From: an uncultured Candidatus Peribacteria bacterium
GTDB lineage: Bacteria > Patescibacteriota > Gracilibacteria > Peribacterales > Peribacteraceae
DNA length: 41,504 bases
Direction of reading: 5' to 3'
NCBI GenBank assembly: GCA_964348745.1
Contig: CAYGDT010000001.1
Location: 1-41,504, forward strand
Each line of letters opens with the position of its first letter. The first letter of the stretch is position 1. A model generated the notes under the pieces. It saw nothing but the letters and a program-made list of their open reading frames with translations. It did not search any database and was not told the origin of the DNA. This document shows, in pieces, positions 3,981 to 41,504 of this stretch. The position numbers were made by a program, and so were the translations under genes.

Positions 3981-5684
3981 TCAATCGCTGCAGATGTCGG
4001 TATCAGGTATACAAGAATTTGTGATGAATCCGCTTTCCAGTACACAATTCCCGAGTCGTGAGCATTCCACTGCATCACAGAAATTCCAACTCCCTGCCCC
4101 GCACATTCCACAGGAATCACACTGAGAATCATTGAATATATCCATTGTGACAGTCGGTCCCGTCGTCTCTATGGGAGCAGATGCTTGCAAGATTGACTCA
4201 TCCTCTTCTATAACCCAATTCTCCCGCTCAATGACAACTACATCATACTGGGTGCAACTCTTGTTACCTTCCAAGGCACGATAGAACATCGTGATAAATT
4301 CCGCGCGATTCACCGGATCATCAGGCCGCATGGTGCCTGTTACTGCATCTCCCTGAAGGATGCAAAGATACACTGCGGAGCTGACAACATCTGTGTACCA
4401 AGCACCCGTTGGCACATCGTAGAACAAGGGGTGCTCCATCGATATCGACGTAGCTGATTGAATTCCCAAATACCTCAGTATCAATGCTGCGGCCTGACTG
4501 CGGGTCAAAGCATCCGCCGGAGCAGCAAAGCAAGGCCTGCTTTTGCCATAGCAATCGTTATACCCACGGATCCAATTCTCCGAAGCTGCATTATCGATGT
4601 AGTGGGCATACCAAGCCTGCGGATCCACATCATCAAAGAAACCGCGTGGTACATCGCCACGGCTACCTTTTGCTATTGTCAAAATTTTAGCCGCTTCGGA
4701 GCGAAAAATTCGCTTATCTGGCTCAAAATGCGTACGAGTCGAATCGAGTGCATTCCTACGAAGGAAATACTCAACACCTTCTGCATACCAATTGTCAGTA
4801 GAAACATCGAGATAGGGAATTGATGCAATAAGTGGCAGAGCCTCCTCAACAGTTGGGTGAGGAACGGCATCTATTGTTTCAGTCTGTTGCGATTCTGGAA
4901 TCAAACTGCCGGTAGTGGAGGTTGACGGAGCTACACCAATTCGCGTATCCGAAACGGTGTTAGACGTAACTTGCACTTGACTCAGTCTCCGTGTTCGTCC
5001 CTGTGCAGCTCTGTCATCCCCTGCAACAGATCCTGCACTGCTGCTTGATCCTCCTCCAACGCCTTCGCCATCTTCACTCAATTGAAGAGTGAGACTTACG
5101 ACAGCATCGAGGACATCTACATCACCGTCGCCATTTTCAGTCATATTCGTATCCGTCGTGTCTCCCGCTGTAAAATCGAATGCCAGCGTATAGGAACTCT
5201 GTGCGGAGAGAACTTTAAAATAGAGATGCGCAAAGAGCGCGTCATCCGGCGCACTGCCGGTATTGACCGGACTTGTTCCAGAGGAATCGTATCCGGTTAC
5301 GTACAGTATCCCGTTACTGATTGCGTTGCCCGAATTTGGGTACGCGGTAAATAGTCCGTCCGTTATCGCAGAAGTTGCAGGTGAGCCGGAACAGAGTGCA
5401 TTGTCATACGGTTCCAGAAGCTCTGTGGAGTACGGCAGAATAATGTCTACCGAATTACTGTCCAAAGAATCGGTCTGCACGCGAATATTTACACGAACGC
5501 AGTCACCGACCGCGTAGGAAGTTTCTCCTGTTGAGCTAACGACAGAAATGATCTGTCCTGCAGTGGCATACGCATGCTGCGATCCGGATAGAATCAATAC
5601 TGCAATGCTGACGCCGTAGAGGAATAGAAATTTGCAACGGAGAAAAGACTTGAAATGCCGATGCAGGGAATGTTCAGAGTTCAT
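3981..5684 (-). CDS. Secreted cohesin-like + 3x SLH-domain protein with a Cys-rich C-terminal tail
   Basis: The first ATG is at 5684; the track start at 5699 is TTG. Signal peptide runs to ...SQHAYA. Track aa 48-205 look cohesin-like (VRVNIRV...VDIILPY...LFAHLYFKV...YTLAFDF), followed by a Gly/Ser/Thr linker. Three SLH-type repeats follow (YLDVSTDNWYAEGVEYF, FDDVDPQAWYAHYIDNA, FYDVPTGAWYTDVVSSA). The last about 50 aa hold 10 Cys. Confidence 0.7.
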   Translation of the reverse strand: MNSEHSLHRHFKSFLRCKFLFLYGVSIAVLILSGSQHAYATAGQIISVVSSTGETSYAVGDCVRVNIRVQTDSLDSNSVDIILPYSTELLEPYDNALCSGSPATSAITDGLFTAYPNSGNAISNGILYVTGYDSSGTSPVNTGSAPDDALFAHLYFKVLSAQSSYTLAFDFTAGDTTDTNMTENGDGDVDVLDAVVSLTLQLSEDGEGVGGGSSSSAGSVAGDDRAAQGRTRRLSQVQVTSNTVSDTRIGVAPSTSTTGSLIPESQQTETIDAVPHPTVEEALPLIASIPYLDVSTDNWYAEGVEYFLRRNALDSTRTHFEPDKRIFRSEAAKILTIAKGSRGDVPRGFFDDVDPQAWYAHYIDNAASENWIRGYNDCYGKSRPCFAAPADALTRSQAAALILRYLGIQSATSISMEHPLFYDVPTGAWYTDVVSSAVYLCILQGDAVTGTMRPDDPVNRAEFITMFYRALEGNKSCTQYDVVVIERENWVIEEDESILQASAPIETTGPTVTMDIFNDSQCDSCGMCGAGSWNFCDAVECSRLGNCVLESGFITNSCIPDTDICSD

Positions 5685-6267
5685 CGCCGGTGGTGCCAAG
5701 ATTAGAAACGGCTATTGTCAGATCAATACCATTGACGATACCGTCAAAATTTAGGTCTTCTGCACCATCTGCACCACGGAGCGTATTAGAAATTTGCGTC
5801 ACATCATCCGCACTGATGGCATTATCGTCATTCACATCCCCTGTATAGAGCTTATTTGTGCCGGTGGTGAAATCGATCTGCACTCCCTGCTGTAGCAACA
5901 CAGACAGCTTTTTACGTTTGAGATGTGACGGCGAAAATAAGAGCAATCGATAGATGCCAGGCGGTGCTTTATAGATACGCACCGGTGGAGCCACGCCCGC
6001 GGCATTGACACGGAATTTAATCCGTTCGATCAGTTGCGAACCAAGAAGCGGGTAGATCTCTAAGGTAAGATCGGTCGGTCCACGGCTCTTTTGTGGAGCG
6101 GCAAGTATATCGATAGAATACAAAGGATTGAGCACTGTTACGCCAATGGATACTGCAGAGAGAAGGGGGCTAACGGAAATTCCTGCAAAAATCAAAGAAA
6201 GCATTCCAAAGACACAGAGAAGAAGAGTACATCGCATTCCGAAGCGCTTTGCAGTTGGTTTTTGCAT
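5674..6267 (-). CDS. Membrane-anchored or secreted protein with a C-terminal dockerin-type (double EF-hand-like) module
   Basis: 197 aa with an N-terminal hydrophobic signal. The C-terminus GDVNDDNAISADDVTQISN...EDLNFDGIVNGIDLTIAVSN carries two D-x-N-x-D-x-x-I-x-x-x-D calcium-loop repeats typical of dockerins. Its stop overlaps the ATG of the cohesin/SLH gene (ATGAACTCTGA, 11-nt overlap). Confidence 0.65.
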   Translation of the reverse strand: MQKPTAKRFGMRCTLLLCVFGMLSLIFAGISVSPLLSAVSIGVTVLNPLYSIDILAAPQKSRGPTDLTLEIYPLLGSQLIERIKFRVNAAGVAPPVRIYKAPPGIYRLLLFSPSHLKRKKLSVLLQQGVQIDFTTGTNKLYTGDVNDDNAISADDVTQISNTLRGADGAEDLNFDGIVNGIDLTIAVSNLGTTGDEL

Positions 6268-6281
6268 ATCATACTATTCTA

Positions 6282-7343
6282 TCACACTTTTCGCTTTATT
6301 TCGAACCGACTTTTTACAAACTGCACCAAGAAGGAAACTGTAAATATTGCCAATAATACAAGAAGCGTTGGAACGAGGGGAATGACGAGAAACGATGATT
6401 TCAACTGATTTGCTGGTAATGAATCGCCTGTTTTCACCTCAAAGTGGATATCCGAAGAAACGGTATAGTAGCCAAAGGCAAACTTCGGCAACCACTCGAT
6501 ATACTTGGTATGAGCAGTACCTCGAAGGACATGCCATGTTGGAAGGCTTATCTCATCAACGGGAATGCCAAAAATATTTCGAAACGTCAGTGATCCGACT
6601 GGTGCAATTTGTACCGTTCCTGCATTTCTGACCGTTGCTAACATTCGTGCCGGCAATGACCAGTTAATAAACCGCTCTGGCTTCAGCGAGATAAACGAAC
6701 CGTTCGTAATAACGTCACCCCGCACAGAAACGACAAAGATAATTGAGGTGTAGGCATTCACTTTCACGCCTCCCGACTTTTCTGTCAGCTGTTTTCTCTT
6801 GATCATAATCGCAGCCATATGGTCTCCTGCATCGGCTTTTGCCGGAATTGTCAGCGTGATGGGAATCGTCACCAATTCACCATGGTGCAGCGCGATTTCC
6901 TTCACAGACGGTTGCAACCATTCCTTTGCGGGAAACGGACCGACTTGTCCGGGCTGGTAGAAACGTGGTGTGCCCGATTCCGGATCTGCGCCGAGATCAC
7001 GAACGTAGACTTCGAAAATTGCATCCTCTCCGGCTTTACTGAGGATGGTGATTGTACGCACCAGCTCATCACCCGGATCTGCTACTTCAAAAAATGAACC
7101 CGGTTGCAAGAGAAACCCGCCGTCAACCAGCACATTACTGTTGCGGTTGATGTGAATATCTACAGGACGGGCATCGAATGCATCATCGAGCAGCTGGCGC
7201 TCCTTATCCTCCAATACCTTCTGCTCATCAATGACTTCCTTGCTCAGCAAGCCTGCGGCATTGATTTCCTGCGCGGCAATCGCCGGTGAACCTGCAAAAA
7301 ATATGCAGAGAGAAAACGAAAAGAGAGCTGGGAATGAAATCAT
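6282..7343 (-). CDS. Surface protein with signal peptide and C-terminal TM anchor, DUF916/DUF3324-like (partner of WxL-type proteins; tentative)
   Basis: Start chosen at the ATG giving signal peptide MISFPALFSFSLCIFFAGSPAIAAQE; the track start at 7391 adds 16 unlikely residues. Two beta-rich halves are present (FFEVADPGDELVRTITI..., VRNAGTVQIAPVGSLTFRNIFG...FGYYTV). A single C-terminal TM segment is followed by a basic tail (KSRFEIKRKV). This layout matches my recollection of DUF916+DUF3324 proteins in Firmicutes WxL/Csc loci. Confidence 0.55.
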   Translation of the reverse strand: MISFPALFSFSLCIFFAGSPAIAAQEINAAGLLSKEVIDEQKVLEDKERQLLDDAFDARPVDIHINRNSNVLVDGGFLLQPGSFFEVADPGDELVRTITILSKAGEDAIFEVYVRDLGADPESGTPRFYQPGQVGPFPAKEWLQPSVKEIALHHGELVTIPITLTIPAKADAGDHMAAIMIKRKQLTEKSGGVKVNAYTSIIFVVSVRGDVITNGSFISLKPERFINWSLPARMLATVRNAGTVQIAPVGSLTFRNIFGIPVDEISLPTWHVLRGTAHTKYIEWLPKFAFGYYTVSSDIHFEVKTGDSLPANQLKSSFLVIPLVPTLLVLLAIFTVSFLVQFVKSRFEIKRKV

Positions 7344-7399
7344 CAGTTGCAGCCTATCGACTCTGGATAGAAAAATCCAGAGCAGGTACACTGCAAATC

Positions 7400-10686: not shown

Positions 10687-13600
10687 ATGTTTTCACTCTG
10701 TTCCTCCGACGATGCCAAGCGGCTTTACGCTTCTGTATGCGCCTCGCAACTGAGCGAACGTGCGAAGAAACGCTTGGACTGGATTGTGTACTACCTTGAG
10801 AACGGCAAGTCTATCAGTGAGACGTGCAGGATGTTTTCGATTTCACGCAGTACGTTTTACCGTGTGATTGAACGATTTGATCCTGCGGATATCACATCAC
10901 TGGAGGATAAGCCACACGCACATTGTTTGCGCTCACATACGGAACTACCGGCGGTTGCGATGGAACGCATCCGCGACGAACGGAAGAGGGAGCCGACAAT
11001 AAGTCGAGAGCGTATCGCAGAAATTCTCGCATCGGAATGCGGTATCGCTGTCTCTCCTTCTTTGATAGGCCGCATTATCAATCGCGAAGGATTGTTTTTT
11101 GGTGCGAGTCTCGCACATCAGAAGAAAAGGATCGAAAAGACAGCAGTGCAGGATGTAGATCATTCAGCAATTGCAGTCGGAAACTCTGCTCCCACATCAT
11201 CAAAATTGCTATTTGTACCTACTCGCCTGACGCTGATGACTCTGAGTATCGGCATCATTATAGCAGCCATGGTCGGAGGAAGTTTAACGGCTACAGTATT
11301 GTCTTCACCGAAGAGAGAAAACATTTCGGATGATCTTGTTATACGATGTGAGGAAGTTCTCAGAACATTTGCTTCGGTGCTTTCGTGGTATAAGCAACAT
11401 GGCAGGCAATATGAAGTGTCTGAAAGTGAGCAGATTGAACTCGATGCGTGCCGAAGCATTATCGACGGCCACACAAAGAACAAATCGTCTACCCTAAAAC
11501 CACTGGGGGCTGCCCTGCGATCAATTCTGAGCATTCCGCGCGCATATGCTGCAGAGGGTATTTTTAAGAAAATTCCGTACCAAGGAAATGTAACACTGAC
11601 ATCGGGAGCAGGGATGAGCAACGGCCAGTACAATATGCGCTTCAAAATCTTTGATGCGGCAAGCGGCGGGACGGAATTATGGTCTGAAACATGGGACAGC
11701 AATACACAACCTGTGACGATGACCGGAGGACTCTTTACAGTGTATCTCGGGACGCATATTGCAATGAACAACGTAGACTTCAATACGGATTCACTCTACC
11801 TCCAAGTGCAGTTTGACCCAGGAAATGACGATGTCTACGAGGAAACATTCTCACCGAGACGCAGGTTCGCATCCGTTCCGTATGCGCTAAATTCCGACAA
11901 AGTAGACGGTCTCGATGCCACGCAGTTTCTCCGCAGTGATGCAAGCGATGTGATGAGTGGCTCTCTGCTCATCCACCAATCTGGACAATCCGTATCGGGA
12001 GCAGATGCTCGGGTACAACTGGAAATCATCGGTACTGCATCTGGGAGAGTTCTGCATGCACAAGACCTGCTGACATCCTCCGGCAAATTGATTGTTGAGG
12101 GAACATCTTTGCTCTACGGCTATGTTGATATTTTTCGAATGCTCTCGATACATGACACGGCATCCGGAAGAGTACTGCACGCTGAAGATTCACTGCAATC
12201 CTCTGGATCACTCATCGTAGAAGGTGAAACAACGCTTAATGGTGCGCTGGTTCTCGGTTCCACTATCCGTATTAACGGTGTTACCTACACCTTCCCTGCT
12301 GGTGATGGCTCTGCTTCTGGCAAAGTACTCAAAACAAACGGCACAGGACAGCTCGCTTGGTCTAGCGACACTACTGGGTCAACATATTATGCTGGCGCAG
12401 GCCTATCGCTCAATGGCGCAAACTTCCTGTCCCTCTCTTCGACACTTACCGGTACCTCCTTGGAGATCACCGGTACGGCAAGCGGAAGAATCGTCCATGC
12501 GCAAGATCTCCTTCGCTCCTCCGGAGCACTCATCGTGAAAGGTACTACGCGCCTGCAATCAGGAGCCATTATAAGAATGGCGGCACCACTCCTTATCCTC
12601 CGTAGTAGTGTAACTTCCCAGCAGTGGGAGTTGAAAGGTGGCAGTACTTTATCGTCTTCTTTTAGTATCTATGATGCCACAGCAAAGAAAATCAGATTCG
12701 TGGTTGGCGGCTCAGACGGCAATACTACGATCGGTACTGGTGTGTCTGTCAGCAACAGCCGACTATACGTCTGGGGAGGTCCCAACGGTGCGAATATTGA
12801 CGTCCGGGGAGATGCTTCCATTGTTGGGGGCGATCAGTCGACCATAGAGCTTGAGGGCAATAACTATGATGTCGACCCCAATTCCATTCGCATGACGTAC
12901 TATGGTGCTAGCCATGGCATCGGGACAACCATGGGATACAGTAACAATAAACTCGGCGTGCTCGCATGGCAGGGCGTTAATACAGCCATCATTGCTGTGC
13001 AAGACATCAAACCTCTTCTCTTTGGTACAAGCAATAAGGAACGCATGAGACTGACCGAGACTGGTTCTCTTGCGATTGGAACTGCGACACCGGGTCGCTC
13101 TAAATTGGCTGTCTCCGGTTCTACGATTATGGGTTTCAATATTGGCTCCGCAGCCGCCGACGCAGGACTTGCACTCGAAGTCCTCGGTACGGCATCCGGT
13201 CGTATCTTCCATGCGCAAGACGAACTGCGCTCCTCCGGTACTCTGATCGTCGATGGAACCACAACGCTCAACGGTGCGCTGGTTCTTGGTTCCACTATCC
13301 GTATCGGTGGGGTCACCTATACCTTCCCTGTCGGCGATGGCTCCGCATCGGGCAAAGTACTCAAAACAAATGGTGCAGGGCAACTCTCTTGGTCAACCGA
13401 TAGCACTGGAGGAGGTGGATCGTACTACGCAGGCCAAGGCCTGTCTCTCAACGGTAGTAACTTCCTCTCCCTCGCAGCCACCCTCACAGGAACATCTCTG
13501 GAAATCTACGGAACAGCTTCCGGAAGAATCCTCCATGCACAAGACCAACTGCGTTCCTCCGGCACACTGATTGTGAAAGGAACAACACGCCTGCAATCAG

Positions 13601-16600
13601 GTGCTATCATCAAAATGACGTCACCACTCCTCGGTGACGGTCTCCAATTCATCATCGACCAGTCGCAGATCAGCGGTCCGGGACGTATTATGGCGATCGA
13701 TGATAATGTTGGTTCGGAAATCTTTGCTATCAACAAGTATGGATTCATAAAAACTGAGCGCGGCTATGTGTCCTACGATGGATTCATGGGACAAGAGTTC
13801 AATGACGAGAGAGCATCTGCTGCAGCCGACCTTGCGACACGCGGCGATGACGGGACATGGGTGTTCGACGAGGGAGCAGCGACATCCACCTGTACCGACA
13901 TCGTAGCGGAGGGCTCAATAAGTTTCGACCGTATGACTAACTCCGCCACACAACCAGCAGGCTGTGCCATGTTCATGGGAATCGGAGTCGGAGACATCAT
14001 GGGATTCACTAATGCTGCGAACTTGCCGCGCACGCTCATTAAGATACGACCGGGTCGCGCTACTGCCGATGCGCATACATGGGCTGGACTCTTTATCGAT
14101 TGGGCTCCCTCCGCAACCGAACCAACAGAGGGTATTTACTTCACCAATGCTGCGGGCGGTACATGGACCGGCCGCATTAACCCCGCATCCGGAGCGAGTT
14201 CAGATGTTGTCTGTACCGGGCAAACCATCTCGACAACACAGTTTGCTGCATTAGAAATTATCGTTGAGAGCTCGACCATCGTCCGTTTCAAAGTAGATAA
14301 TGACTTATCAAACGGTATTAACTTTGTAGACTGCGGCACGGGAAACCCTAGTGGCGTCACCAGTAACTTGGGGGCAGGTGTGTTTATGGGTACCACCTCC
14401 ACGACTAGCTTTACTATGGATACGGATTACGTTCGTGTATGGACAGATGACCCAAAAACAAGTGGGCAGTCCGTCGTGCAGACTCCAGAAACGCCAACAG
14501 AGCTGGATCTTACAACGAGTGCCGACCTCGCCGAAGCATACCCTGCCATCGACGCAGGAAGTTTTGGAGCCGGTGAGCTCGTTTCCATAGACGAAAAAGG
14601 AGATGGAAGTGTGCGAAAAAGTAAAAATCCATACGAGAAAAATTTGATCGGCGTCGTGAGCGCATCACCCTACGATGTCATGGGTGCGCAGTCGGAGAAT
14701 ACCGTAGCCATAGCACTAGCCGGACGTGTACCTGTAAGAGTCTCGACGGAGAACGGGCCTATTGCTGTGGGCGAATCCATCACCTCTTCTTCGAAGCCCG
14801 GCATCGGTATGAGAGCAAGTTCAGCAGGCCCAATCATCGGGAAAGCAATGCAAGCGTACGATGGTCAAGGTGAAGGTATCATTATGGTGTTTGTCTATGC
14901 AGGAGACTACGTCGGTGATGGGCTGTACCTGCTTGGCAGCGGCGCAAACACAATAGGTGAAAGCACTCAAAATTCCGGCACTTCAGCTGAGTATGCGGAA
15001 TGGTTTAAAGTATCAAACGATCATCCGATCGCCGGCGAAGTAGTTTGTATCGATCCGACAACACCGCAATCCGTTGCATATTGTGCAGATGAGCCGAGTG
15101 AAAACATCGTTGGCATTGTCGCCACGAGAGCGCAAATCGTAGGCAATGAATTTACAGGAGTACAGGGACTGCCTGTACCCGGTCACGTTCTGGTTGGCCT
15201 CATGGGGCAGACAACTGTAAAAGTCACTACTTTGGAAGGCAAATCCATTCGCATCGGAGATGCTCTCACTGCAGCAAGTACGAAAGGATTCGCACGCAAA
15301 TCGATCCGAGGTGAACCGACTATCGGGGTTGCTTTGGAAGAATTCACAGGTGAGGACGGCACAATTTCCATCCTTATATCCCGCAACAATGCTTCGCACA
15401 CTATGCAAGAAATCGAACAGAAGATACTCGATACCGTTGCGAGCATGGGACTCACCGAAAAGATGCAGAGCATCATCGCGCAGAGTATTGATACACTCGA
15501 CTTCGGTTATTCGATTAAAGAAGAAGTACGCGAGCAGCTACTGGCTCTCTACCTCTCGGAACCGCAGACTGCCGATGCACCATCTGTGAAACCGACACTT
15601 CCTGAGTTACTTACGCACGCACGCTCGTTCTCCGGTTCTACTCTGTTTGCTGGAAATGTCGAAGTTCAAGGAGCCCTTTCCGTGAGCGGACCTGTGAATA
15701 TGAGTGGCAGTCTCACCGTTGCCGAAATTCTTCGAACATCGCATCTCACCGCCTCAGGAAACCTCACTGTCGGTGGCTCCGCGCGTATCATGGGCGATGC
15801 CTATGTCGAAGGCACGCTGACCATCGCTTCGCTTATTGTGCCCGATGCTCTACATGTATATGGAGACATGACCGTACAAGGCTTCGTACAAGCGTATCAT
15901 CTTTCTGCCTCCAGTGGGGCAACCATCCGCGGGTCGATCGACATCGATACGCAGACAGGGTCGATCCGCATAGGATCCGGTTCTATCTCCATCAAATCCG
16001 GAAATATGATCCTCGAGAATGGAAGTATCGATGTGCAAGAACTCATCGTCCGCAAAGCGCTGTTACTCCACGGAGACATTACCGTAGAGGGTCTTGCTGT
16101 CTTCCTCGGCAATCTCGAAGTCCGCGGAGACCTGATTTTGAGTGACCGCCAGGCAGGATTTGCAGAGATTCCTGCCGGAGTAAGCAGTGTCAGAATCTCG
16201 TATGGAACAGGATTCATCGCAACTCCGATCATCACGGCAACACCGATGAGTCGTCTTAATACATCGTGGTGGATCGATGCTGTGACAAGCTCCGGGTTTA
16301 CGATCTTCTCTGCAGATCCCGTACCGCAGAATGCTCTCTTCTCATGGAATGCGATGCTCACAAACAATCCGAAAACCTTTAAAGGAACTGATAGTGAAAA
16401 AATACTGATCGACTTCCCCGTCGATTCATACGGTGTACCTCTCTCGAGCAACCCCGCTTGGAATGCATGCATCAGAAATCAAACACTCATTGATGAAGAA
16501 TCGGGAAAACCATTCAACTGCAGTCGCTACCATCAAGAACAGTTATGGACCCAGCCGGATCTGCTTCTGGAATTCCTCTACGATCCTGAGGCAAGCCCGA

Positions 16601-16971
16601 AATTTACGTTGCCGGATAACTATCGTATCGTTACGATCGAAGATACGAATAGTCAACGTGATCCATTGCCTGTAGGCGATGAAGAGGGATCCGAAGTGGT
16701 AGAAGAGAAAGTGGTAGGAGAGGAAATAGAAGAAGTAGAGGAAGTAGAAGGAGGAGAGGAAGTTGAAGAAGTTGAAGAAATAGAGGAAATTGAGGAAGTA
16801 GAAGGAGGAGAAGCGGAGAGCGAATCCGGGGCTGGATCTCAAATACCTCCAGTGGAATCAGAGGAAAATATTCAAGAGGAGCAACCGAAAGAAGTATCGA
16901 ACGAACAGAATGACACTACACAACAAACGCCAACAGAGACCGTGAATCCGGTTGAGGATACTGCGTCATAG
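10687..16971 (+). CDS. Giant (2094 aa) HTH - TM - tail-fibre-like surface protein
   Basis: One uninterrupted ORF.
- aa 25-135: transposase-type HTH (ISETCRMFSISRSTFYRVIERF...LEDKP...RERIAEIL...SPSLIGRII).
- aa 180-205: one TM helix.
- Fibre-type motifs follow (IPYQGNVT...YNMRFKIFD...LWSE; SVPYALNSDKVDGLDATQFLRSD).
- Five copies of TASGR[VI]xHA[QE]DxLxSSGxLIVxG and a duplication of about 155 aa.
- Two DLAEAY/YAEWF...VALAGRVPV-type modules.
- A beta-helix-like G/V/S-rich region.
- A WNACIRN module and an acidic E/V tail. Confidence 0.8.
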   Translation: MFSLCSSDDAKRLYASVCASQLSERAKKRLDWIVYYLENGKSISETCRMFSISRSTFYRVIERFDPADITSLEDKPHAHCLRSHTELPAVAMERIRDERKREPTISRERIAEILASECGIAVSPSLIGRIINREGLFFGASLAHQKKRIEKTAVQDVDHSAIAVGNSAPTSSKLLFVPTRLTLMTLSIGIIIAAMVGGSLTATVLSSPKRENISDDLVIRCEEVLRTFASVLSWYKQHGRQYEVSESEQIELDACRSIIDGHTKNKSSTLKPLGAALRSILSIPRAYAAEGIFKKIPYQGNVTLTSGAGMSNGQYNMRFKIFDAASGGTELWSETWDSNTQPVTMTGGLFTVYLGTHIAMNNVDFNTDSLYLQVQFDPGNDDVYEETFSPRRRFASVPYALNSDKVDGLDATQFLRSDASDVMSGSLLIHQSGQSVSGADARVQLEIIGTASGRVLHAQDLLTSSGKLIVEGTSLLYGYVDIFRMLSIHDTASGRVLHAEDSLQSSGSLIVEGETTLNGALVLGSTIRINGVTYTFPAGDGSASGKVLKTNGTGQLAWSSDTTGSTYYAGAGLSLNGANFLSLSSTLTGTSLEITGTASGRIVHAQDLLRSSGALIVKGTTRLQSGAIIRMAAPLLILRSSVTSQQWELKGGSTLSSSFSIYDATAKKIRFVVGGSDGNTTIGTGVSVSNSRLYVWGGPNGANIDVRGDASIVGGDQSTIELEGNNYDVDPNSIRMTYYGASHGIGTTMGYSNNKLGVLAWQGVNTAIIAVQDIKPLLFGTSNKERMRLTETGSLAIGTATPGRSKLAVSGSTIMGFNIGSAAADAGLALEVLGTASGRIFHAQDELRSSGTLIVDGTTTLNGALVLGSTIRIGGVTYTFPVGDGSASGKVLKTNGAGQLSWSTDSTGGGGSYYAGQGLSLNGSNFLSLAATLTGTSLEIYGTASGRILHAQDQLRSSGTLIVKGTTRLQSGAIIKMTSPLLGDGLQFIIDQSQISGPGRIMAIDDNVGSEIFAINKYGFIKTERGYVSYDGFMGQEFNDERASAAADLATRGDDGTWVFDEGAATSTCTDIVAEGSISFDRMTNSATQPAGCAMFMGIGVGDIMGFTNAANLPRTLIKIRPGRATADAHTWAGLFIDWAPSATEPTEGIYFTNAAGGTWTGRINPASGASSDVVCTGQTISTTQFAALEIIVESSTIVRFKVDNDLSNGINFVDCGTGNPSGVTSNLGAGVFMGTTSTTSFTMDTDYVRVWTDDPKTSGQSVVQTPETPTELDLTTSADLAEAYPAIDAGSFGAGELVSIDEKGDGSVRKSKNPYEKNLIGVVSASPYDVMGAQSENTVAIALAGRVPVRVSTENGPIAVGESITSSSKPGIGMRASSAGPIIGKAMQAYDGQGEGIIMVFVYAGDYVGDGLYLLGSGANTIGESTQNSGTSAEYAEWFKVSNDHPIAGEVVCIDPTTPQSVAYCADEPSENIVGIVATRAQIVGNEFTGVQGLPVPGHVLVGLMGQTTVKVTTLEGKSIRIGDALTAASTKGFARKSIRGEPTIGVALEEFTGEDGTISILISRNNASHTMQEIEQKILDTVASMGLTEKMQSIIAQSIDTLDFGYSIKEEVREQLLALYLSEPQTADAPSVKPTLPELLTHARSFSGSTLFAGNVEVQGALSVSGPVNMSGSLTVAEILRTSHLTASGNLTVGGSARIMGDAYVEGTLTIASLIVPDALHVYGDMTVQGFVQAYHLSASSGATIRGSIDIDTQTGSIRIGSGSISIKSGNMILENGSIDVQELIVRKALLLHGDITVEGLAVFLGNLEVRGDLILSDRQAGFAEIPAGVSSVRISYGTGFIATPIITATPMSRLNTSWWIDAVTSSGFTIFSADPVPQNALFSWNAMLTNNPKTFKGTDSEKILIDFPVDSYGVPLSSNPAWNACIRNQTLIDEESGKPFNCSRYHQEQLWTQPDLLLEFLYDPEASPKFTLPDNYRIVTIEDTNSQRDPLPVGDEEGSEVVEEKVVGEEIEEVEEVEGGEEVEEVEEIEEIEEVEGGEAESESGAGSQIPPVESEENIQEEQPKEVSNEQNDTTQQTPTETVNPVEDTAS
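12142..12594 (+). repeat. Internal duplication, copy 1 (about 150 codons) within the giant gene
   Basis: Peptide ...DTASGRVLHAEDSLQSSGSLIVEGETTLNGALVLGSTIRINGVTYTFPAGDGSASGKVLKTNGTGQLAWS...TLTGTSLEITGTASGRIVHAQDLLRSSGALIVKGTTRLQSGAIIRMAAPLL. The similarity to copy 2 is also obvious at nucleotide level (for example ggtgcgctggttctcggttccactatccgtat). Confidence 0.85.
13168..13632 (+). repeat. Internal duplication, copy 2 within the giant gene
   Basis: Peptide LALEVLGTASGRIFHAQDELRSSGTLIVDGTTTLNGALVLGSTIRIGGVTYTFPVGDGSASGKVLKTNGAGQLSWS...TLTGTSLEIYGTASGRILHAQDQLRSSGTLIVKGTTRLQSGAIIKMTSPLL. It lies about 1.03 kb downstream of copy 1. Confidence 0.85.
16681..16825 (+). repeat. Purine-rich low-complexity coding repeat (acidic E/V/G tail of the giant protein)
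   Basis: GAA/GAG/GTA/GGA codon runs encode EEKVVGEEIEEVEEVEGGEEVEEVEEIEEIEEVEGGEAESE. Confidence 0.8.
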
Positions 16972-17007: not shown

Positions 17008-17739
17008 TCAACGGGAATCAGCGAAAAACTGCAGAGGATTTTGTTGCTGCCCATTGACGCGAACCTCAAAGTGAAGATGGATGCCTGTCGGACCGCGCAC
17101 ATTGCCGGAATTGCCCATAAAACCAATCACCTGACCCGCAGTGACGGTGTCACCCTTTTTAAGATAGAGATCTTTATTGTGCCCATACAGTGTCATGAGA
17201 CCGAACCCATGATCGATTTCCACCATTGTTCCGTATCCTTCGTTCCATCCTGATCCTGAACGTACGACCGTTCCGTCCGCAGCTGCAAAAATTGGACCTC
17301 CTCCGCGAGTCTGCACATCGATTCCACGATGTTCATCGCTATAGAACTGCGTCACAAAACAAGAGGAATTGCAGGGCTTTAATAGAAATAGTGGCATGTG
17401 CGCAGGCGCACTTGAAACAGTAGAGACTGAAGAACGAGGATGTATTGCAGATTCGGATGCATTCCGAGGAATAATCAACTCCTGACCAGCGATGATAAAT
17501 TCACCTTCGAGGAGATTTTTTGCGACTATTCTTTGAGGGGTTACATCGTACATCGCAGCTATTTCGTCAAGGGTTTCGCCTTTTTGCACGGAGTGGAATA
17601 CCGTGCCCGAACGGAGCGGCACAGGCGTTTGAATACCGGGAATTTTCTCTTCGATGATTTGCGAACAACCGGTTAAAGCCAACAACAACACCAAAAGACC
17701 GCAATAGCCCCGAAAGTGTTTACTATGAAGATTGCACAT
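17008..17739 (-). CDS. LysM-domain M23-family peptidoglycan endopeptidase lipoprotein
   Basis: Start at ATG 17739 gives lipoprotein signal ...LLLALTGC. LysM motif: VQKGETLDEIAAMYDVTPQRIVAKN...AGQELIIP. M23 motifs: HRGIDV, DGTVV, YGHN and GNSG...GIHLHFEV. Confidence 0.85.
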   Translation of the reverse strand: MCNLHSKHFRGYCGLLVLLLALTGCSQIIEEKIPGIQTPVPLRSGTVFHSVQKGETLDEIAAMYDVTPQRIVAKNLLEGEFIIAGQELIIPRNASESAIHPRSSVSTVSSAPAHMPLFLLKPCNSSCFVTQFYSDEHRGIDVQTRGGGPIFAAADGTVVRSGSGWNEGYGTMVEIDHGFGLMTLYGHNKDLYLKKGDTVTAGQVIGFMGNSGNVRGPTGIHLHFEVRVNGQQQNPLQFFADSR

Positions 17740-17797
17740 TCTCACGAATATACTACTGGAGAAACGGTACTCTTCCCATATGCTATACTCCGTATCC

Positions 17798-18172
17798 ATG
17801 CAATTCACCGCAGACGTTATCACCGGCTCTGGAAACGGAAAGAAACTCGGATTCCCCACAGTAAACCTGAACACATCCTCCGTTCCTGAGGATCTTTGTG
17901 AAGGCGTGTACGCCTGTTTCGCACGTCTTGGAAACTATGGCCTACGTCTCCCTGCTGCAATGCACTACGGAGCGCGGCCGACCCTCGGTGACACACGTTC
18001 CTGCGAGGTGCACGTGATCGATCATGCCGTAGAGTTCCCACCGCGCACTGTGACGGTTGATGTAGTAGAAAAACTGCGGGACGTCCAGAATTTCGGATCG
18101 AAAGAAGCACTGATTGCACAGCTTAAGCAAGACATCGCACACGCACGCACCGTGTTATGCGTCCCATGCTGA
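17798..18172 (+). CDS. Riboflavin kinase (stand-alone kinase domain, no FAD-synthetase domain)
   Basis: Start at ATG 17798. Motifs GSGNGKKLGFPTVNL, GVYA, HYGARPT and EVHVID...VEKLRD...F match the RibF C-terminal (flavokinase) domain. Confidence 0.75.
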   Translation: MQFTADVITGSGNGKKLGFPTVNLNTSSVPEDLCEGVYACFARLGNYGLRLPAAMHYGARPTLGDTRSCEVHVIDHAVEFPPRTVTVDVVEKLRDVQNFGSKEALIAQLKQDIAHARTVLCVPC

Positions 18173-20090: not shown

Positions 20091-20185
20091 ATCAGTGATC
20101 AGGAATTGGGAATCGGTTATTCTCTTGGTCCGATAACCGATCACTGATTCCCGATAACCGATAGCCGATCACTGATCACTGATCG
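20091..20185. repeat. Simple-sequence inverted-repeat hairpin between convergent rnhB and lgt
   Basis: ATCGGTTAT (20112-20120) pairs with ATAACCGAT (20133-20141). TCAGTGA (20092-20098) pairs with TCACTGA (20141-20147). The units GATCACTGAT and CGATAACCGAT recur 3x and 2x on the right arm, which runs into the last codons of lgt (..TISDQ*). Confidence 0.6.
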
Positions 20186-22533: not shown

Positions 22534-23391
22534 TTACTCCTCGATCTTCCTAGCAAGCACAATCATACGGTCGCGCGTTGTTCCGACAGGGTAGCAGGTG
22601 ATCATTTTCAGAATGCTTGCATCGTACTGTTGTTCGAGAATGGAGGTGGCAGACGGGGAGACAACTTCCTTGCTCTCGACATTGTACGCAATACCACTGA
22701 CGACGATCTGCTCGCCTATGGCGATGTCCGGCAGTTTTGCAAACAATCTGCCAAAATCGCTGTCTCTCGAGCGAGAATCGGGAGGGCTGCTATGACCGGC
22801 GACAATCAACGTTCCTTGTTGACCTGGATTTACAGAATGTGGATAGGCAACCGCACCGTAGCTTAATCCCACTTGCATTTGCTCTTCAAGAGATTGCCAA
22901 TCATGGGCTGACCAATGCGTCATCGAAGGTAGTAGTACAGGTGCCTTGATACCGAGACTTGGAACCGAAAGTGTCCAAGCATACCGGAGATCCCACTCAC
23001 GAATTTCGTTCGTTGCCGCTGCACGCAAAGTCTCCTTTTGCTGCACAGGTTCTTGCTGTACTGCCAATGTAGGGACATCAGAAGGCGAAGGTTTCAGCGT
23101 AGCCTGAACATGGGTACTTTCAACACGCTGCGTATAGTGTTCCCCAAGATCATCGACAATAACCTCGGAGACTGCGGCAGTCGTATTGACAGTCTGCGCT
23201 GCTGAGAGTGAATCCAACATGCTCTTTAGTGTTGTCAATACATCGGACGGAACCTGAGGAAAAGCAACATGTGAAATCAGTGCAGTCCAAATGGAAAACG
23301 ATGCGAATATCGCAAGAATAGCCACTACGAACGCTTTAGTTTTATGTTTGTTCACTATTAATATTATACAATATTTGTTGATATTTGGCAA
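22534..23391 (-). CDS. Sortase-family transpeptidase (membrane-anchored)
   Basis: N-terminal TM anchor. Catalytic His in LIVAGHSS, the TLxTC-type motif LKMITCYPVG, and the catalytic Arg in TTRDRMIV. Confidence 0.8.
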   Translation of the reverse strand: MPNINKYCIILIVNKHKTKAFVVAILAIFASFSIWTALISHVAFPQVPSDVLTTLKSMLDSLSAAQTVNTTAAVSEVIVDDLGEHYTQRVESTHVQATLKPSPSDVPTLAVQQEPVQQKETLRAAATNEIREWDLRYAWTLSVPSLGIKAPVLLPSMTHWSAHDWQSLEEQMQVGLSYGAVAYPHSVNPGQQGTLIVAGHSSPPDSRSRDSDFGRLFAKLPDIAIGEQIVVSGIAYNVESKEVVSPSATSILEQQYDASILKMITCYPVGTTRDRMIVLARKIEE

Positions 23392-24601: not shown

Positions 24602-26671
24602 TTATGGGGTGACTGTGACGGGAAGAGAATAGATACTTGTGGATCCTGCGCTATCCGTCAGTGTCAATTCAACGTTAAATTCACCAATTTGCGTAAAGAC
24701 ATGATCCATCTGTCTGGAGTCACTTTGTAGATCCGCCTCTGCTTCTGAGCCGTCGCCATACTTCCAGACAGCTTTCACGGGTTTGCCCGTCGAGCACTTC
24801 CAGTCAAAGAGCACATACCCATTCAGCTTCACCGATGGCCTGCTGCGCGTAAAACATGCCTTCAGCAAAGGCGCACGCACGAGAATCGATCGTGTCGCAG
24901 ATTCGCTCTTCCCCGATAGTGAGTTTACCGTGAGTGTCACGACATACTCTCCCGGATTTCCATACAGATGCTCCTGATAGGCATCGCCGAAGTGCTGTTC
25001 TTCGAGAGGACCGTCTCCGAAGTTCCAGACGAATCCCGTGATCTGTTCACCGGGCAAGCGTGAAAGTGAAGCGTCGAATTCCACGTTGAGCGGTGCGCTG
25101 CCCTGCGGAGGGCGAACTTCAAATGTTACATTTTCGGACTTAGGTTTTACTTCCAACACAATAGCCCTGCGCATAACTCTTCCTTCGGCATCTTTTGCCA
25201 GAAGCACCAGGTTGTATTGCCCCTGATCACGGAAGATTGCTTTCAGTGTCGTGTCCGTGGAAGTTATTTGCGATGCCTTGTCCGGAGCCTCCCACCAGAA
25301 ATCGACGAGCGGCGTTGTTGTTTTCGGTGTCAAACTTATAGAGACAGGCGCCTCGGCGGAGATTCTGCCGCTGACCACCGTATGCGATCCATCGAATGAA
25401 AGATCTGGAATATCCAAATTTTCCACGACTTTGACGACCTTTACTGTTTTAGAAATCTGTCCGTTGAGATTCCGCGCACTCGCCTTAACCTGATAGACCT
25501 TTCGGTTGTTAAACGTATGACCGACTCGCTCGCCAACATCGACTGTTCCATCTCCGAAATCCCACTCGACTTGCTGAAGCGGTTCCTCCGTCACGATCCT
25601 AAATACCACCTGAAATGGCGGAGGACTTTCTAGAAAGTCGGGTGTCGTTTCTATGGTGACCGGAAAAGGATTCGGACTTGGAGGATTAATCGTCAGAGCG
25701 CGCTGATACGAATTTTGCGTTTGATTGAGAAAGAGAATCGTAACAGAAACAACCTCTTCTCCTGTTGTTAAGAATGTATACGAAGCTTCCAACGATACAG
25801 AGGTTTCATCAGGAATACCGTCTTGGTTGAAATCCCACTGGACTTCGCGGACGTCTTGCTTTTGCTCCTCGGCAACTAAATGCGCGACGCTGAATGTTAC
25901 CGGTTCATCCACAACCGGAACAAACGGCGTATACGAAAAAACTGCATTAGGAATAACAACGCGCCTTCTGATAACCCGCGATTTTCCTCCTCCGAGATCG
26001 AGCGTAGCACTGACGTTATAGCCGGCAGCCTGCTCATAATAACCCGTCGCTTCCGGTGTGACGGATTCCAGATCGACGGTTCCATCACCGGTGAGATCCC
26101 ACTTGTAGGTTTGCACCTTCAAACCGCGACGTGCGAGAATTTCCGTTGCTTCCTTGGCACTATAGGTGATGGAAATCGGAGCAACCAGCTCGGGGTTCCC
26201 CTCGGGCGATGTAATCATGAGAGGAAGAGCGGGCTCTTGCGCGATGTAATAGGGAACAAACATGGAGAGCGCAATACCAGGTACAATAAAAAGGGCTATC
26301 CGGATCATGCTCATTTTGCGTACCCGATCATCCGCGTGGCCTGACTTTCCGATACGGATAAACGCGAGCAAGCCTGCGAGTAGCATGCCGACAGAAACGA
26401 CGATAGACAGCAGTTTTTCAAAGGGGATCAGTGCATCCCATTTGCCCATAGGATCGGGCAAGACCGAGAGAAGAAAGACCGACCAGATGATATACAGAAC
26501 ATACGGAAGACCGACAAGAGTCAGTAATGCAAATCTGGCGCGGGCAATCGCGGATGCATCCTGCAGGATAGGAGAAGACGGCGTAGGTGCGGGAGGTGCA
26601 CTGGGTGGGGTGATGCCGTCGACGCTACGTTCAGGCTGTGTAGTCACGCGTTTACTGGGAAGTGAAGTCAA
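24602..26671 (-). CDS. Multi-pass membrane-anchored protein with about 5 PKD-type domains
   Basis: Pro-rich N-terminus and three hydrophobic segments. Repeated PKD signatures follow: WDLTGDGTVD, WDFNQDGIPD, WDFGDGTVD...GHTF, WNFGDGP...HLYGNPGEYVVTLTV and WKYGDGS...HVFTQIGEFNVELTLTD. Confidence 0.75.
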   Translation of the reverse strand: MTSLPSKRVTTQPERSVDGITPPSAPPAPTPSSPILQDASAIARARFALLTLVGLPYVLYIIWSVFLLSVLPDPMGKWDALIPFEKLLSIVVSVGMLLAGLLAFIRIGKSGHADDRVRKMSMIRIALFIVPGIALSMFVPYYIAQEPALPLMITSPEGNPELVAPISITYSAKEATEILARRGLKVQTYKWDLTGDGTVDLESVTPEATGYYEQAAGYNVSATLDLGGGKSRVIRRRVVIPNAVFSYTPFVPVVDEPVTFSVAHLVAEEQKQDVREVQWDFNQDGIPDETSVSLEASYTFLTTGEEVVSVTILFLNQTQNSYQRALTINPPSPNPFPVTIETTPDFLESPPPFQVVFRIVTEEPLQQVEWDFGDGTVDVGERVGHTFNNRKVYQVKASARNLNGQISKTVKVVKVVENLDIPDLSFDGSHTVVSGRISAEAPVSISLTPKTTTPLVDFWWEAPDKASQITSTDTTLKAIFRDQGQYNLVLLAKDAEGRVMRRAIVLEVKPKSENVTFEVRPPQGSAPLNVEFDASLSRLPGEQITGFVWNFGDGPLEEQHFGDAYQEHLYGNPGEYVVTLTVNSLSGKSESATRSILVRAPLLKACFTRSRPSVKLNGYVLFDWKCSTGKPVKAVWKYGDGSEAEADLQSDSRQMDHVFTQIGEFNVELTLTDSAGSTSIYSLPVTVTP

Positions 26672-28693: not shown

Positions 28694-28770
28694 CGGGATG
28701 TAGCTCAGTTGGCTAGAGCGCGTGATTCGGGTTCACGAGGTCGAGAGTTCAAGTCCCTCCATCCCGACCA
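28694..28770 (+). tRNA. tRNA-Pro (anticodon CGG), CCA encoded
   Basis: CGGGATGTAGCTCAGTTGGCTAGAGCGCGTGATTCGGGTTCACGAGGTCGAGAGTTCAAGTCCCTCCATCCCGACCA. The acceptor stem is CGGGATG/CATCCCG and the D-stem is GCTC/GAGC. The anticodon stem is CGTGA/TCACG with loop TTCGGGT. The T-loop is TTCAAGT. Confidence 0.9.
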
Positions 28771-28803: not shown

Positions 28804-28829
28804 CAAGCCGGATACAATCTCTCGAGCAT

Positions 28830-39467: not shown

Positions 39468-40505
39468 ATGCTAAAGGGCGTAATATCATTCTTCCGTACG
39501 AAGTGCGGCGGTCGCATGCTGCTATCAACATTGTTGATCTGCTCCGCTGCGCTGATACGCTCCGATGATGAAAGACACATCCCATACGAAGCTCATTTCA
39601 TGCAAACGCAGACGATGCTTGTCGCGGTAGATGCCGAACCAGCCGAGGTCTCATCCTCGCTCTCACGACTGCTTCCAGATATTGAAGTGACTACCATTTT
39701 GGAAAGAGCTGATCCTGTGGAAGCTTACGTGCCAGTTCCGAAACTGAAGACAGAGCGAAATACTTCTATTCAACATATTCCGAGGCAACGAAGACACATT
39801 CGATTATCGGAGGAAATTGCAGTCCTGCCAGCCGCTACCGAAGCGAAGTTTCCGGAGCTGGGCAATGCCATATACCCCGTAGCAAAAACGCCAGACTGGG
39901 GCGACATGCGCTCGTCTGCTGAGTGGAACCGGTCATACGATGAAATGGGACCTTCGGATTTCGTACCTGTTCCAGCCTATGACATAAGCAGGCTAACCAC
40001 ACCTATGTATGACCTTTCCCGTGATCTGCAGGAAGTGAACATCCCCATCGTCACCGAAAAGCTCTTCTACTCAACGCGCTTCTTTGGTCGCTACCACGCG
40101 GACTCTGGAGAGTTCCAAGGTACACACCCTGGCATAGACCTTAAGCTCGCGGCAGGTACGCCTGTCGGTTCCGTCGCAGGCGGTCGGGTGCACGCCACTG
40201 GTACTGATGAATCCCTCGGGAACTTCGTCATGATTCTGCATAGATTACCTGATGGAAACGAGATTGTATCTATCTATGGACATCTTGAATCCGTAAGCGT
40301 ACGGGAAGGTCAGGACGTCGCTCCGGGAACAATCATCGGTAGAGCGGGTTCAACTGGTCGCTCGAGCGGCGTTCACCTGCATTTACAGATCGATTGGAAA
40401 CGGGAGCCGGTTAGACATACTGTCTATGCACCAGCATCCCGTCCGTCGAAGGAAGAAGCATCAAAATGGACTATTCATCCGATCGAATTTATTCAACGAT
40501 GGTAG
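39468..40505 (+). CDS. M23-family peptidoglycan endopeptidase (exported)
   Basis: Hydrophobic N-terminus (MLLSTLLICSAALI). M23 motifs: HPGIDL, GGRVH, YGHLES and GSTGRSSGVHLHLQI. Confidence 0.8.
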   Translation: MLKGVISFFRTKCGGRMLLSTLLICSAALIRSDDERHIPYEAHFMQTQTMLVAVDAEPAEVSSSLSRLLPDIEVTTILERADPVEAYVPVPKLKTERNTSIQHIPRQRRHIRLSEEIAVLPAATEAKFPELGNAIYPVAKTPDWGDMRSSAEWNRSYDEMGPSDFVPVPAYDISRLTTPMYDLSRDLQEVNIPIVTEKLFYSTRFFGRYHADSGEFQGTHPGIDLKLAAGTPVGSVAGGRVHATGTDESLGNFVMILHRLPDGNEIVSIYGHLESVSVREGQDVAPGTIIGRAGSTGRSSGVHLHLQIDWKREPVRHTVYAPASRPSKEEASKWTIHPIEFIQRW

Positions 40506-41504
40506 TCTGCTCGCTTAAGACAGCGGTCTCGTCCTCCTCCACTGAGATAACAATAGTCTCCTCATCGAGAACAACTGGATCAACGGTCTCGTTCTTTACG
40601 ATAAGCTTATCATACAGAAACTTACCCCTCTGCGCGATATACTGCGTCATTGGTAAGATGTACTTAGCAACAACGTTGCCGTTGACCACAGTCAAATCTT
40701 TGACCATGAGAATATCCGGTGTGGGTACGGTGTAGGTGGCGACTGTGTAACCGTGAACACCGACACGCTTCACGAAACGATCTGACCAGTCAAAGGATAT
40801 GAGTGTATCTGGGTGCTCCCAGGAGTGTCCGCGATGGTAGCGGCGGCAGTTCACCGGTCTGTCCTGACCATCAATAAAGAGTTGTACGTTACGGATACAG
40901 GCATTCCACACCATGTCACTGGAGACCGGGTAACCGTCTTCACCGACGGCGAAGTTGATTGGCTTCGGCCTAAAAGCCTCGCGCGCTGCAATCTCCATGG
41001 CGATCTTCTCCTGCTCAGCCTTTTTGGCGTCAATCTCGGAGAGGCGCTCTTCCTCCAAGCGCGCAGCATCAATGGCACCGCAGGCAGGGTGACCGTTTTC
41101 TAGAATATCCTCAATCAGTTCCTCCTTGACGTCAAAGGCACGGGCATAGTTCTCCGCCATAAATCCGACGATGTCAAAGAACTGAAGCAGGTTGATCTTC
41201 TCGCGAACCGTACACAAAGTAGCCATCTGTTCATCTGTAAGTTCGCCAGTTCCGGCTCCGGGTCCAGGTCCTCCGAATCCGCTCGGTGCGACTCCCACGT
41301 CGCCAAACCCTACGTTCGACAGTCCAATGAGGTAGCGAACAAGATTTTGTCTGCGATACCGTGACCCCTGGATCCCGCTATCGTCAGTTTCTTCTTCATT
41401 GCTGATACTCGATGAACTCTCACTCGAGGAACTGCTTGATGAAGAGCTTTCACTCGAGGAACTGCTTGATGAAGAGCTTTCACTCGAGGAACTGCTTGAT
41501 GAAG
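40489..41504 (-). CDS. Ser-repeat protein with a WNACIRN module (5-prime partial; the ORF is open to the window edge)
   Basis: The frame stays open from 41504 down to the stop at 40489; the track start at 41298 is an internal GTG. The N-terminal part is poly-Ser (SSSSSSSESS units). The middle contains DGYPVSSDMVWNACIRNVQLFIDGQDRPVNCRRYHRGHSWEHPDTLISF, paralogous to aa 1906-1967 of the giant protein. Confidence 0.7.
   Translation of the reverse strand, partial: SSSSSSSESSSSSSSSSESSSSSSSSSESSSSISNEEETDDSGIQGSRYRRQNLVRYLIGLSNVGFGDVGVAPSGFGGPGPGAGTGELTDEQMATLCTVREKINLLQFFDIVGFMAENYARAFDVKEELIEDILENGHPACGAIDAARLEEERLSEIDAKKAEQEKIAMEIAAREAFRPKPINFAVGEDGYPVSSDMVWNACIRNVQLFIDGQDRPVNCRRYHRGHSWEHPDTLISFDWSDRFVKRVGVHGYTVATYTVPTPDILMVKDLTVVNGNVVAKYILPMTQYIAQRGKFLYDKLIVKNETVDPVVLDEETIVISVEEDETAVLSEQTTIVE
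41421..41504 (-). repeat. Perfect 30-nt tandem repeat (2.8 copies, truncated by the window end) encoding a Ser-rich decapeptide
   Basis: The unit CACTCGAGGAACTGCTTGATGAAGAGCTTT occurs at 41421-41450, 41451-41480 and 41481-41504. In the coding frame it reads TCA TCA AGC AGT TCC TCG AGT GAA AGC TCT, which is SSSSSSSESS. Confidence 0.9.

Follow-up and report, generated by a model that had tools for sequence, protein, structure and literature searches.

The locus described here is of a known kind, in which modular surface fibres and adhesins of bacteria go together with a cell-wall hydrolase. The closest described systems are of several sorts: the tail fibres of phages and R-pyocins, tailspikes and the MAT fibres of Bdellovibrio; surface proteins ending in a constant sorting element, such as the C-terminal domain (CTD) of the type IX secretion system (T9SS) with PorU, LPXTG with sortase, WxL and SLH; and the M23 peptidases, both those like lysostaphin, LytM and LasA and those like NlpD, ActS and EnvC. 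Lysostaphin-type M23 enzymes cut Gly-Gly bonds, the zinc-ligand motifs of E. coli NlpD and EnvC are degenerate, and metallopeptidases cannot transpeptidate as sortases do. Peribacteria and other members of the candidate phyla radiation (CPR) are believed to depend on other cells or to live attached to them, through a contact mechanism that is largely unknown. PMC4736985 describes for Peribacteria genomes a disulfide-forming protein, along with numerous large extracellular proteins whose function is unknown and which may serve attachment. We analysed a stretch of 41,504 nucleotides (nt) from an uncultured Candidatus Peribacteria bacterium (contig CAYGDT010000001.1, positions 1 to 41,504; hereafter the window), for which an earlier note had described a two-cysteine module shared by a giant tail-fibre-like protein and a second surface protein, each encoded tail to tail with an M23 peptidase gene. 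Term searches of PMC4736985 turned up neither this domain nor its pairing with M23.

The account that we favour, with a probability of about 0.6, is that the module would be an extracellular tip or cap domain, that M23 is coupled to a separate element of the second protein, here called the FGG unit, and that the adjacency of the giant to its LysM-M23 neighbour is coincidental. The geometry of both pairs is as the earlier note gave it. The giant gene stops at 16971 and the LysM-M23 gene at 17008, so that the two converge with a gap of 36 nt, in which no terminator or promoter was found; the second M23 gene, of a kind that we call type 2 (39468-40505), and the convergent open reading frame (ORF) of the second surface protein (40489 onwards) overlap by 17 nt. 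Both peptidases match Pfam M23. They share 28% identity, confined to the catalytic core, and on their sequences they are not orthologues.

Local hidden Markov models (HMMs) for the module, for M23 (seeded with three M23 types) and for the unit were mapped on all fetched loci (L numbers). In the genome set, the type 2 M23 gene adjoins a gene encoding an FGG-unit protein (class S, to which the second protein belongs) in 8/9 loci. In seven of these eight pairs the ORFs converge, spaced by -26 to +81 nt, and in the eighth (L035) the M23 gene lies upstream on the same strand. Since the flanking genes differ (the window and L001 have Wzy_C, L026 and L029 share a different set, and the remaining loci have yet others), the pair appears to have been kept through rearrangements. 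The same association was seen from the side of the peptidase: among metagenome contigs, 14 of the 15 evaluable strong type 2 orthologues have a convergent unit-bearing gene immediately downstream. Four of these 14 partner genes (L043, L045, L052 and L057) stop after the second Cys of the unit and carry no module, and because they keep the unit while lacking the module, the partner of the peptidase is the unit. Module proteins without FGG upstream (L033, L036 and L037) have no M23 neighbour, and a search starting from the unit gave one positive locus (L073, with unit, module and convergent type 2 M23) and one negative (L074). Genetically, the type 2 M23 is coupled to the FGG unit and not the module, an optional appended domain.

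The giants, which form class G, gave the opposite result. Where at least 1.8 kb past the giant gene was available (19 loci, up to 9.7 kb covered), no M23 ORF was found downstream. The genes that follow them sort by synteny into several unrelated sets; in L031, whose gene order upstream of the giant comes closest to that of the window, the downstream gene is M50-like and not an M23. Neither did the LysM-M23 gene recur beside other giants, or match the second M23 found upstream in L026 and L029. Because 0/19 giant loci in other species have an M23 gene nearby, the adjacency in the window looks like a coincidental, one-off event; with assumed figures of about 4 M23 genes per genome of about 1300 genes and about 25 giant loci, one chance adjacency would be unremarkable. 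M23 genes as neighbours, whose enrichment the earlier note proposed to test, are found at unit-bearing loci and not at module-only giants of other species, and of its repeated pairing of module and M23 the second instance is conserved across many Peribacteria, whereas the first is seen at none of these other giant loci and involves a non-orthologous peptidase. Its adhesin-plus-lysin reading is reasonable for the second pair, provided that the module is not taken as the element tied to M23. The comparison with a phage tail fibre and tail lysin did not stand as a phage module: with no module relative among the 2.9 million viral contigs of IMG/VR, and a chromosomal context, a phage origin is ruled out, and this is a chromosomal surface-protein feature.

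The commonest immediate convergent neighbour of the giants is a gene resembling M50/site-2 proteases by motif only (HEWAH ... NLFPIAPLDG), found in 6 of about 21 class G loci (L005 at 930-1733, L016, L021, L022, L027 and L031). Among the few complete cases, no pattern was seen between this neighbour and the helix-turn-helix (HTH)-transmembrane (TM) N-termini described below.

Table 1. Positions of the giant and class S genes, their M23 neighbours and the elements within them (nt of the window)
Feature	Position	Strand	Basis and remarks
Giant tail-fibre-like surface protein, class G, 2094 aa	10687..16971	+	ORF, translation; P0013 among module matches
Beta-sandwich, H-type-lectin / pyocin-fibre-like (predicted)	16147..16359	+	AlphaFold2 (AF2) strands, model residues 121-191; RQAGFAEIP...SGFTI...FSW; just upstream of module copy 1
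Module copy 1	aa 1908-1979, nt 16408-16623	+	HMM envelope; FPVD..G.P.SS...WNACIRN...G.P..C.RYH....W.HPDL.I.F.W; two invariant Cys
Disordered acidic (E/V-rich) low-complexity C-terminal tail	16624..16968	+	Translation; tandem repeats 16694-16813 encode part
LysM + M23, NlpD-like lipoprotein	17008..17739 (ORF 17008-17874)	-	Pfam LysM E=8.5e-10, M23 E=8e-31
M23 peptidase, type 2	39468..40505	+	N-terminal TM segment, conserved pre-domain, M23 domain; HPGID, YGH, HLH
Class S surface-protein gene, 3' part, cut by window end	40489..41504	-	Frame open to 41502; homologues P0002-P0004
Module copy 2	~40735-40965	-	Within the minus-strand ORF ending at 40489
FGG unit, GIQGSRYRRQN ... APSGFGG (nt 41269-41289) ... 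Q..LC ... helical ... C	41080..41376	-	Unit alignment and HMM
Ser-rich linker	41420..41504	-	Encoded by a perfect 30-nt x 2.8 tandem repeat

That the module is common to both window proteins, as first claimed, was borne out. In a BLASTP comparison of the two C-terminal regions the copies are identical at 26/56 positions (46%) without gaps (E=1e-16), and by a six-frame motif scan there are no others in the window. The copy in the giant ORF (nt 16402-16587) reads ILIDFPVDSYGVPLSSNPAWNACIRNQTLIDEESGKPFNCSRYHQEQLWTQPDLLLEFLYDP. Over the profile the two window modules share 36% identity with each other; that of the giant averages 49% with class G modules, and that of the second protein averages 49%, with a maximum of 75%, with class S modules. 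By sequence they are members of two subfamilies, not recent duplicates of one another.

Homologue searches by word index lacked sensitivity (4, 3 and 4 matches), and it was an exhaustive search with a 77-position module profile against 1.84e9 representatives that revealed the family: 256 protein clusters at E<=1e-3, of which 178 reach E<=1e-10. The earlier note had proposed such a search of relatives, and it succeeded. The statistics that follow refer to the 153 best profile matches. Each protein carries one copy, at a median of 96 residues from the C-terminus, and 73 of the proteins have at least 1000 aa, the longest 5357. The signature is F-P-V-D-x-x-G-x-P-x-S-S-x-x-x-W-N-A-C-I-R-N ... G-x-P-x-x-C-x-R-Y-H-x-x-x-x-W-x-H-P-D-L-x-I-x-F-x-W-N ... 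P-P-L-L-x-L-P-x-G-Y. Within it Pro13, Cys23, Cys40 and Trp49 are conserved in all sequences and Ser15, Pro52 and Phe58 in 99%, and near-invariant polar residues occur at H44 (88%), H51 (84%) and D53 (97%); the module as a whole is rich in aromatic residues. A scan of one genome per GTDB species with the peptide pattern S[SNT][DN]x[AVI][WF]NACI gave 32 genome loci, 28 of which are labelled Candidatus Peribacteria, Peregrinibacteria or Peribacteraceae. As these genomes are its closest relatives, the window is probably part of a Peribacteria chromosome. For scanning the loci themselves a 40-sequence module alignment proved too diverse, and a 7-sequence alignment was used instead.

Comparison with databases returned no described relative. 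Pfam has no match to the module in either window protein; among 40 module sequences, at E<=5, it gave only two sub-threshold matches to Peptidase_M74 (best E=0.0023), which we treated as chance. Neither NCBIfam nor PHROGs had a match covering the module, and sequence-profile searches of the PDB returned either nothing or the sushi domain of IL-2R-alpha at E=0.12, also treated as chance. AF2 models (eight sequences only) have a predicted local distance difference test (pLDDT) score of 80-87 over the module in the giant and of about 62-88 in the second protein, and in both contexts the confidently predicted fold is a small alpha/beta unit ordered strand-helix-strands. Three Foldseek runs found no analogue of the module or of the unit (best E=1.8 for the small-protein model and 0.64 in BFVD). 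On this sequence evidence, the module is a true, previously undescribed, lineage-specific domain family of about 75 residues in Candidatus Peribacteria.

The second protein runs from a Ser-rich linker through the FGG/two-Cys unit, a coiled coil and the module to an 81-aa tail. The extent of 40489-41504 reported for its ORF is right, with the frame open to the window edge; a 269-aa ORF with a GTG start at this locus is only part of the gene, and class S relatives whose tail is similar (P0016 and P0009) have 1732-1859 aa. In class S proteins the unit, which is about 110-150 residues long and precedes the module, consists of G-x-H-R-G-H-x-T-N, A-P-G-A-F-G-G, Q-x4-C and a helical stretch ending in a second Cys. 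Among 24 aligned units FGG is present in 23 and both Cys in all, making F-G-G, with the two Cys, the best-conserved motif. The N-terminal passengers differ wholly between loci and include six Big_3_5 Ig repeats with MBG_2, Laminin_G_3, RTX, TSP_3, Cys-rich DUF4215 repeats, dockerin, a right-handed beta-helix and Kelch. A constant C-terminal element joined to interchangeable passengers is what the T9SS CTD, LPXTG, WxL and SLH systems also have, and like the CTD with PorU and LPXTG with sortase the FGG unit has a dedicated, linked peptidase. There is however no homology to any of them, the linked enzyme is a zinc M23 hydrolase, and the two genes converge instead of sharing an operon. An outer membrane is not known from CPR cells.

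The type 2 M23 belongs to the Pfam family (E=2.6e-25, 88.9 bits against a cut-off of 28.7). Its orthologues at seven other loci are 47-69% identical over about 220 residues that include the pre-domain, and H220, D224, H272, H303 and H305 are invariant in all eight, with HxxxD, YGH and HxH kept. These features point to an active, membrane-anchored endopeptidase. It shares HxxxD, the catalytic His and HxH with lysostaphin, LytM and LasA, and the Gly-rich motif of its partner unit, ending in F-G-G, presents the type of bond cut by that family, although the substrate here is only inferred; it differs from them by its own conserved pre-domain of about 90 aa and its TM anchor, and has no NCBIfam equivalog at cut-off.

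Two class S loci carry a third kind of M23 (L026 6008-6922 and L029 4888-5856), 73% identical between the loci, divergent and just upstream of the class S gene, which is therefore flanked by two M23 genes. This protein has a TM segment, then a charged, helical-looking stretch rich in Ala, Glu and Arg, then M23.

The LysM-M23 protein beside the giant, in comparison, looks like a housekeeping enzyme. It passes the Pfam cut-offs for both M23 (106.5 bits against 28.7) and LysM (38.9 against 20.9), has the lipobox LLLALTGC if translation starts at the ATG at 17739, carries HRGID and HLH motifs, and adjoins a Mur ligase gene. Lipobox, LysM, M23 and its best NCBIfam matches, which are of ActS/NlpD/EnvC type, it has in common with NlpD, ActS and EnvC; it differs in its intact zinc-ligand motifs, and the NCBIfam scores lie far under the equivalog cut-offs.

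Class G accounts for 104/119 evaluable module proteins (about 87%), giants of 1,000-5,300 aa. They keep their ends and differ in the length of the middle part. The same block of about 145 residues, made up of the end of a beta-solenoid and the RQAGFAxIP...SGFTI...FSW sandwich, precedes the module in 102/119 module proteins, and its model was likened to tailspike beta-helices, the R2 pyocin fibre and H-type lectins. The tails that follow the module, of about 100 residues, are disordered and rich in Ser, Glu, Ala, Thr and Pro. The N-termini have a signal peptide ending ...AEAA|TGINxxINYQGK or, in a subset that includes the window giant, a cytoplasmic HTH domain and a TM segment.

The window giant begins with a cytoplasmic HTH and a TM segment; fibre repeats, a beta-solenoid and a predicted H-lectin-like sandwich follow, and then come the module and the acidic tail. 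Pfam gives HTH matches at aa 25-131 and sub-threshold FapA/Bactofilin beta-solenoid matches at aa 1650-1751. The NCBIfam model Bdello_MAT_N (NF053851) matches aa 367-417 with 25.7 bits against a 60-bit cut-off, over profile positions 110-160 only, so that by sequence the giant resembles the Bdellovibrio MAT chimeric fibre family without being a member. Foldseek matched the C-terminal model to the R2 pyocin fibre (6cl6, E=4e-3, prob 1.00) and Helix pomatia agglutinin (2ccv, E=1.4e-2, prob 0.99), within a range of E=2e-3 to 1.4e-2, at a TM-score of about 0.4 on the target and with a pLDDT of only 47-77 in the sandwich region. These tailspike, pyocin-fibre and H-lectin matches are consistent with the strands that precede the module (the search output does not give which query residues were aligned), and Pfam H_lectin has no match in the giant. 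Compared with phage and R-pyocin tail fibres, tailspikes and MAT fibres, the giants are alike in their fibre repeats, beta-solenoid and a putatively H-lectin- or pyocin-fibre-like sandwich near the C-terminus, as well as in having conserved ends and a middle of variable length. They differ in being chromosomal, in bearing a signal peptide or a TM anchor, and in their disordered acidic or Ser-rich tail. Nothing in those systems matches the module by sequence or fold, and the matches of the giants all fall under the family cut-offs.

The first 215 aa of the giant (10687-11330) hold a transposase-like HTH (Pfam HTH_32/28/23, and the IS481/IS630 models over their N-terminal part); a TM segment comes next, at about aa 186-210. 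Because a cytoplasmic N-terminus with a hydrophobic segment at about aa 100-140 recurs in other giants (P0011, P0018, P0039 and P0052, not scanned for HTH), this start is not mis-called. A membrane-tethered DNA-binding domain on a 2000-aa fibre suggests contact-dependent signalling. At the other end, post-module tails (P0009-P0153) finish in Glu in 60/130 and Gln in 21/130, often as V-T-E or V-I-E, and Glu makes up 15% of the tails; the terminal bias may be a C-terminal recognition signal.

We propose that the module is an extracellular domain, placed close to the C-terminus in exported surface proteins of two kinds. One kind would be giant fibres, with a beta-helix and H-lectin-like sandwich, the module, and a disordered acidic or Ser-rich tail; the other would be adhesin-like proteins in which swappable passengers are followed by a unit composed of G-HRGH, APGAFGG and a two-Cys helical stretch, and then by the module. 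An N-terminal signal peptide would export these proteins, or an N-terminal TM segment retain them, and Cys23 and Cys40 are probably disulfide-bonded. Since the proteins appear to be exported, and the module lies C-terminally, far from the N-terminal anchor, with two invariant Cys, in a lineage that encodes a disulfide-forming protein, and with a lectin-like neighbour in the fibre-like giants, it may serve as a distal, disulfide-stabilised tip or cap. Such a tip would bind a ligand, and the most plausible one is a glycan or a component of the envelope of a partner cell. The type 2 M23 most likely docks on, or cleaves at, the Gly-rich APGAFGG of the unit (candidate target peptide, VAPSGFGGPGPG), given the bond preference of lysostaphin-type enzymes, the conservation of this motif above all others and the variation of the adhesin-like passengers. 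Wall-hydrolase activity would thereby be coupled to a variable adhesin.

A broader interpretation, which we regard as tentative and on balance doubtful, is that the unit and its dedicated, active, membrane-anchored M23 make up a previously unrecognised CPR surface-protein system, in which the M23 recognises F-G-G and the module is an optional tip shared with host-contact giant fibres. Cleavage at F-G-G might then mature or release an adhesin with swappable passengers; alternatively F-G-G might hold the M23 as a latent lysin, delivered by the adhesin to the wall of the partner cell.

Against the tip-and-coupling account that we prefer stand several points. A binding tip is argued from position and analogy only, with no Foldseek analogue, and the invariant Cys together with the conserved His44, His51 and Asp53 could form a metal site instead of a disulfide. 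FGG-unit loci without an adjacent type 2 M23 do exist, namely L023, L074 and a second contig carrying P0003, the last judged from its called-gene list only. Being convergent and not operonic, the M23-unit pair does not imply co-expression. The adjacency of giant and LysM-M23, unconserved as it is, may still be functional in this organism. Finally, the genome scan relied on a single pattern, so that divergent members of the module family are under-sampled.

Among the other explanations of the module, we consider it unlikely that it acts as a C-terminal folding nucleus or intramolecular chaperone (IMC), similar to foldon or the S74 IMC, that nucleates fibre oligomerisation and might in addition cleave itself through Ser15 with His and Asp residues. 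The position of the module near the C-terminus of tail-fibre- and tailspike-like proteins would suit such a role, as would the near-invariant S15, H44, H51 and D53 and the dispensable-looking disordered tail after it. However, Pfam gives no Peptidase_S74 or chaperone-domain match (giant at E<=0.01, 40 modules at E<=5), the module is also found on Ig-repeat, RTX and Kelch adhesins, which are not fibrous trimers, and four orthologous class S genes dispense with it.

Just as improbable, in our estimate, is that the module, with or without the tail, is a non-covalent envelope anchor or sorting domain that holds the protein on the wall or S-layer of its producer, in the manner of WxL, SLH or the T9SS CTD. 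It is, after all, rich in aromatic residues and a constant C-terminal feature of proteins whose N-terminal regions vary, 81/130 of them ending in Glu or Gln, and most of the signal peptides look cleavable (AEA|A), which would leave no TM anchor. What speaks against this is that a subset including the window giant does have an N-terminal TM anchor, that the giants keep a conserved N-terminal domain resembling fibre-attachment domains (the weak Bdello_MAT_N match), and that the module shows no similarity to known wall-binding domains.

More improbable still is that the module itself is the docking or targeting partner of M23, and that the two window loci are copies of one adhesin-plus-lysin apparatus for penetrating a host wall. 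Both window genes converge on an M23 gene and the pairing recurs in many module-bearing class S loci, as this would require; but the neighbourhood data largely refute it, for it sits poorly with the giant loci bearing only a module (0/19 with M23), with the four partners of type 2 M23 that have no module, with the difference in type between the window M23 proteins, which resemble each other in the catalytic core only, and with the M50-like gene downstream of the giant in its closest syntenic locus, L031. Chance or low-complexity similarity between the modules, for which only their short length (56-75 aa) speaks, is ruled out by the pairwise BLASTP (E=1e-16), the 178 clusters at E<=1e-10 and the strongly conserved, non-repetitive signature.

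The practical value of these results is that a lineage-specific end cassette on giant fibres offers a handle for finding and comparing giants, and that the unit is a second conserved element, whose gene appears locked across species to that of a probably active cell-wall peptidase while the passengers are swapped. Both the module and the unit could become new domain models for annotation. If the peptidase does act on or with the unit, this would be a testable route by which an uncultured symbiont couples adhesion to wall hydrolysis.

The rest of the window contains housekeeping genes (transketolase, Mur ligase, TsaD, Lgt and RNase HII) and a sortase gene at 22534-23391, and is dense in envelope functions. 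Surface-protein genes at 3981-7391 and 24602-26671 account for an SLH-domain protein, a weak dockerin-like match and a PKD-repeat protein. Two adjacent paralogues (28722-30497, 591 aa, and 30574-32244, 556 aa) are kept as a tandem pair in L023, which shares this pair and one further gene cluster (C5) with the window and has neither the Wzy_C gene nor an adjacent type 2 M23. Tandem arrays of 7-nt repeats in 4-6 copies (CCGATAA, AGCTTGT, CTATAAG and AATTGAG) sit at 20130-20169, 30500-30526, 30542-30571 and 36339-36370, in intergenic DNA between convergent or divergent genes.

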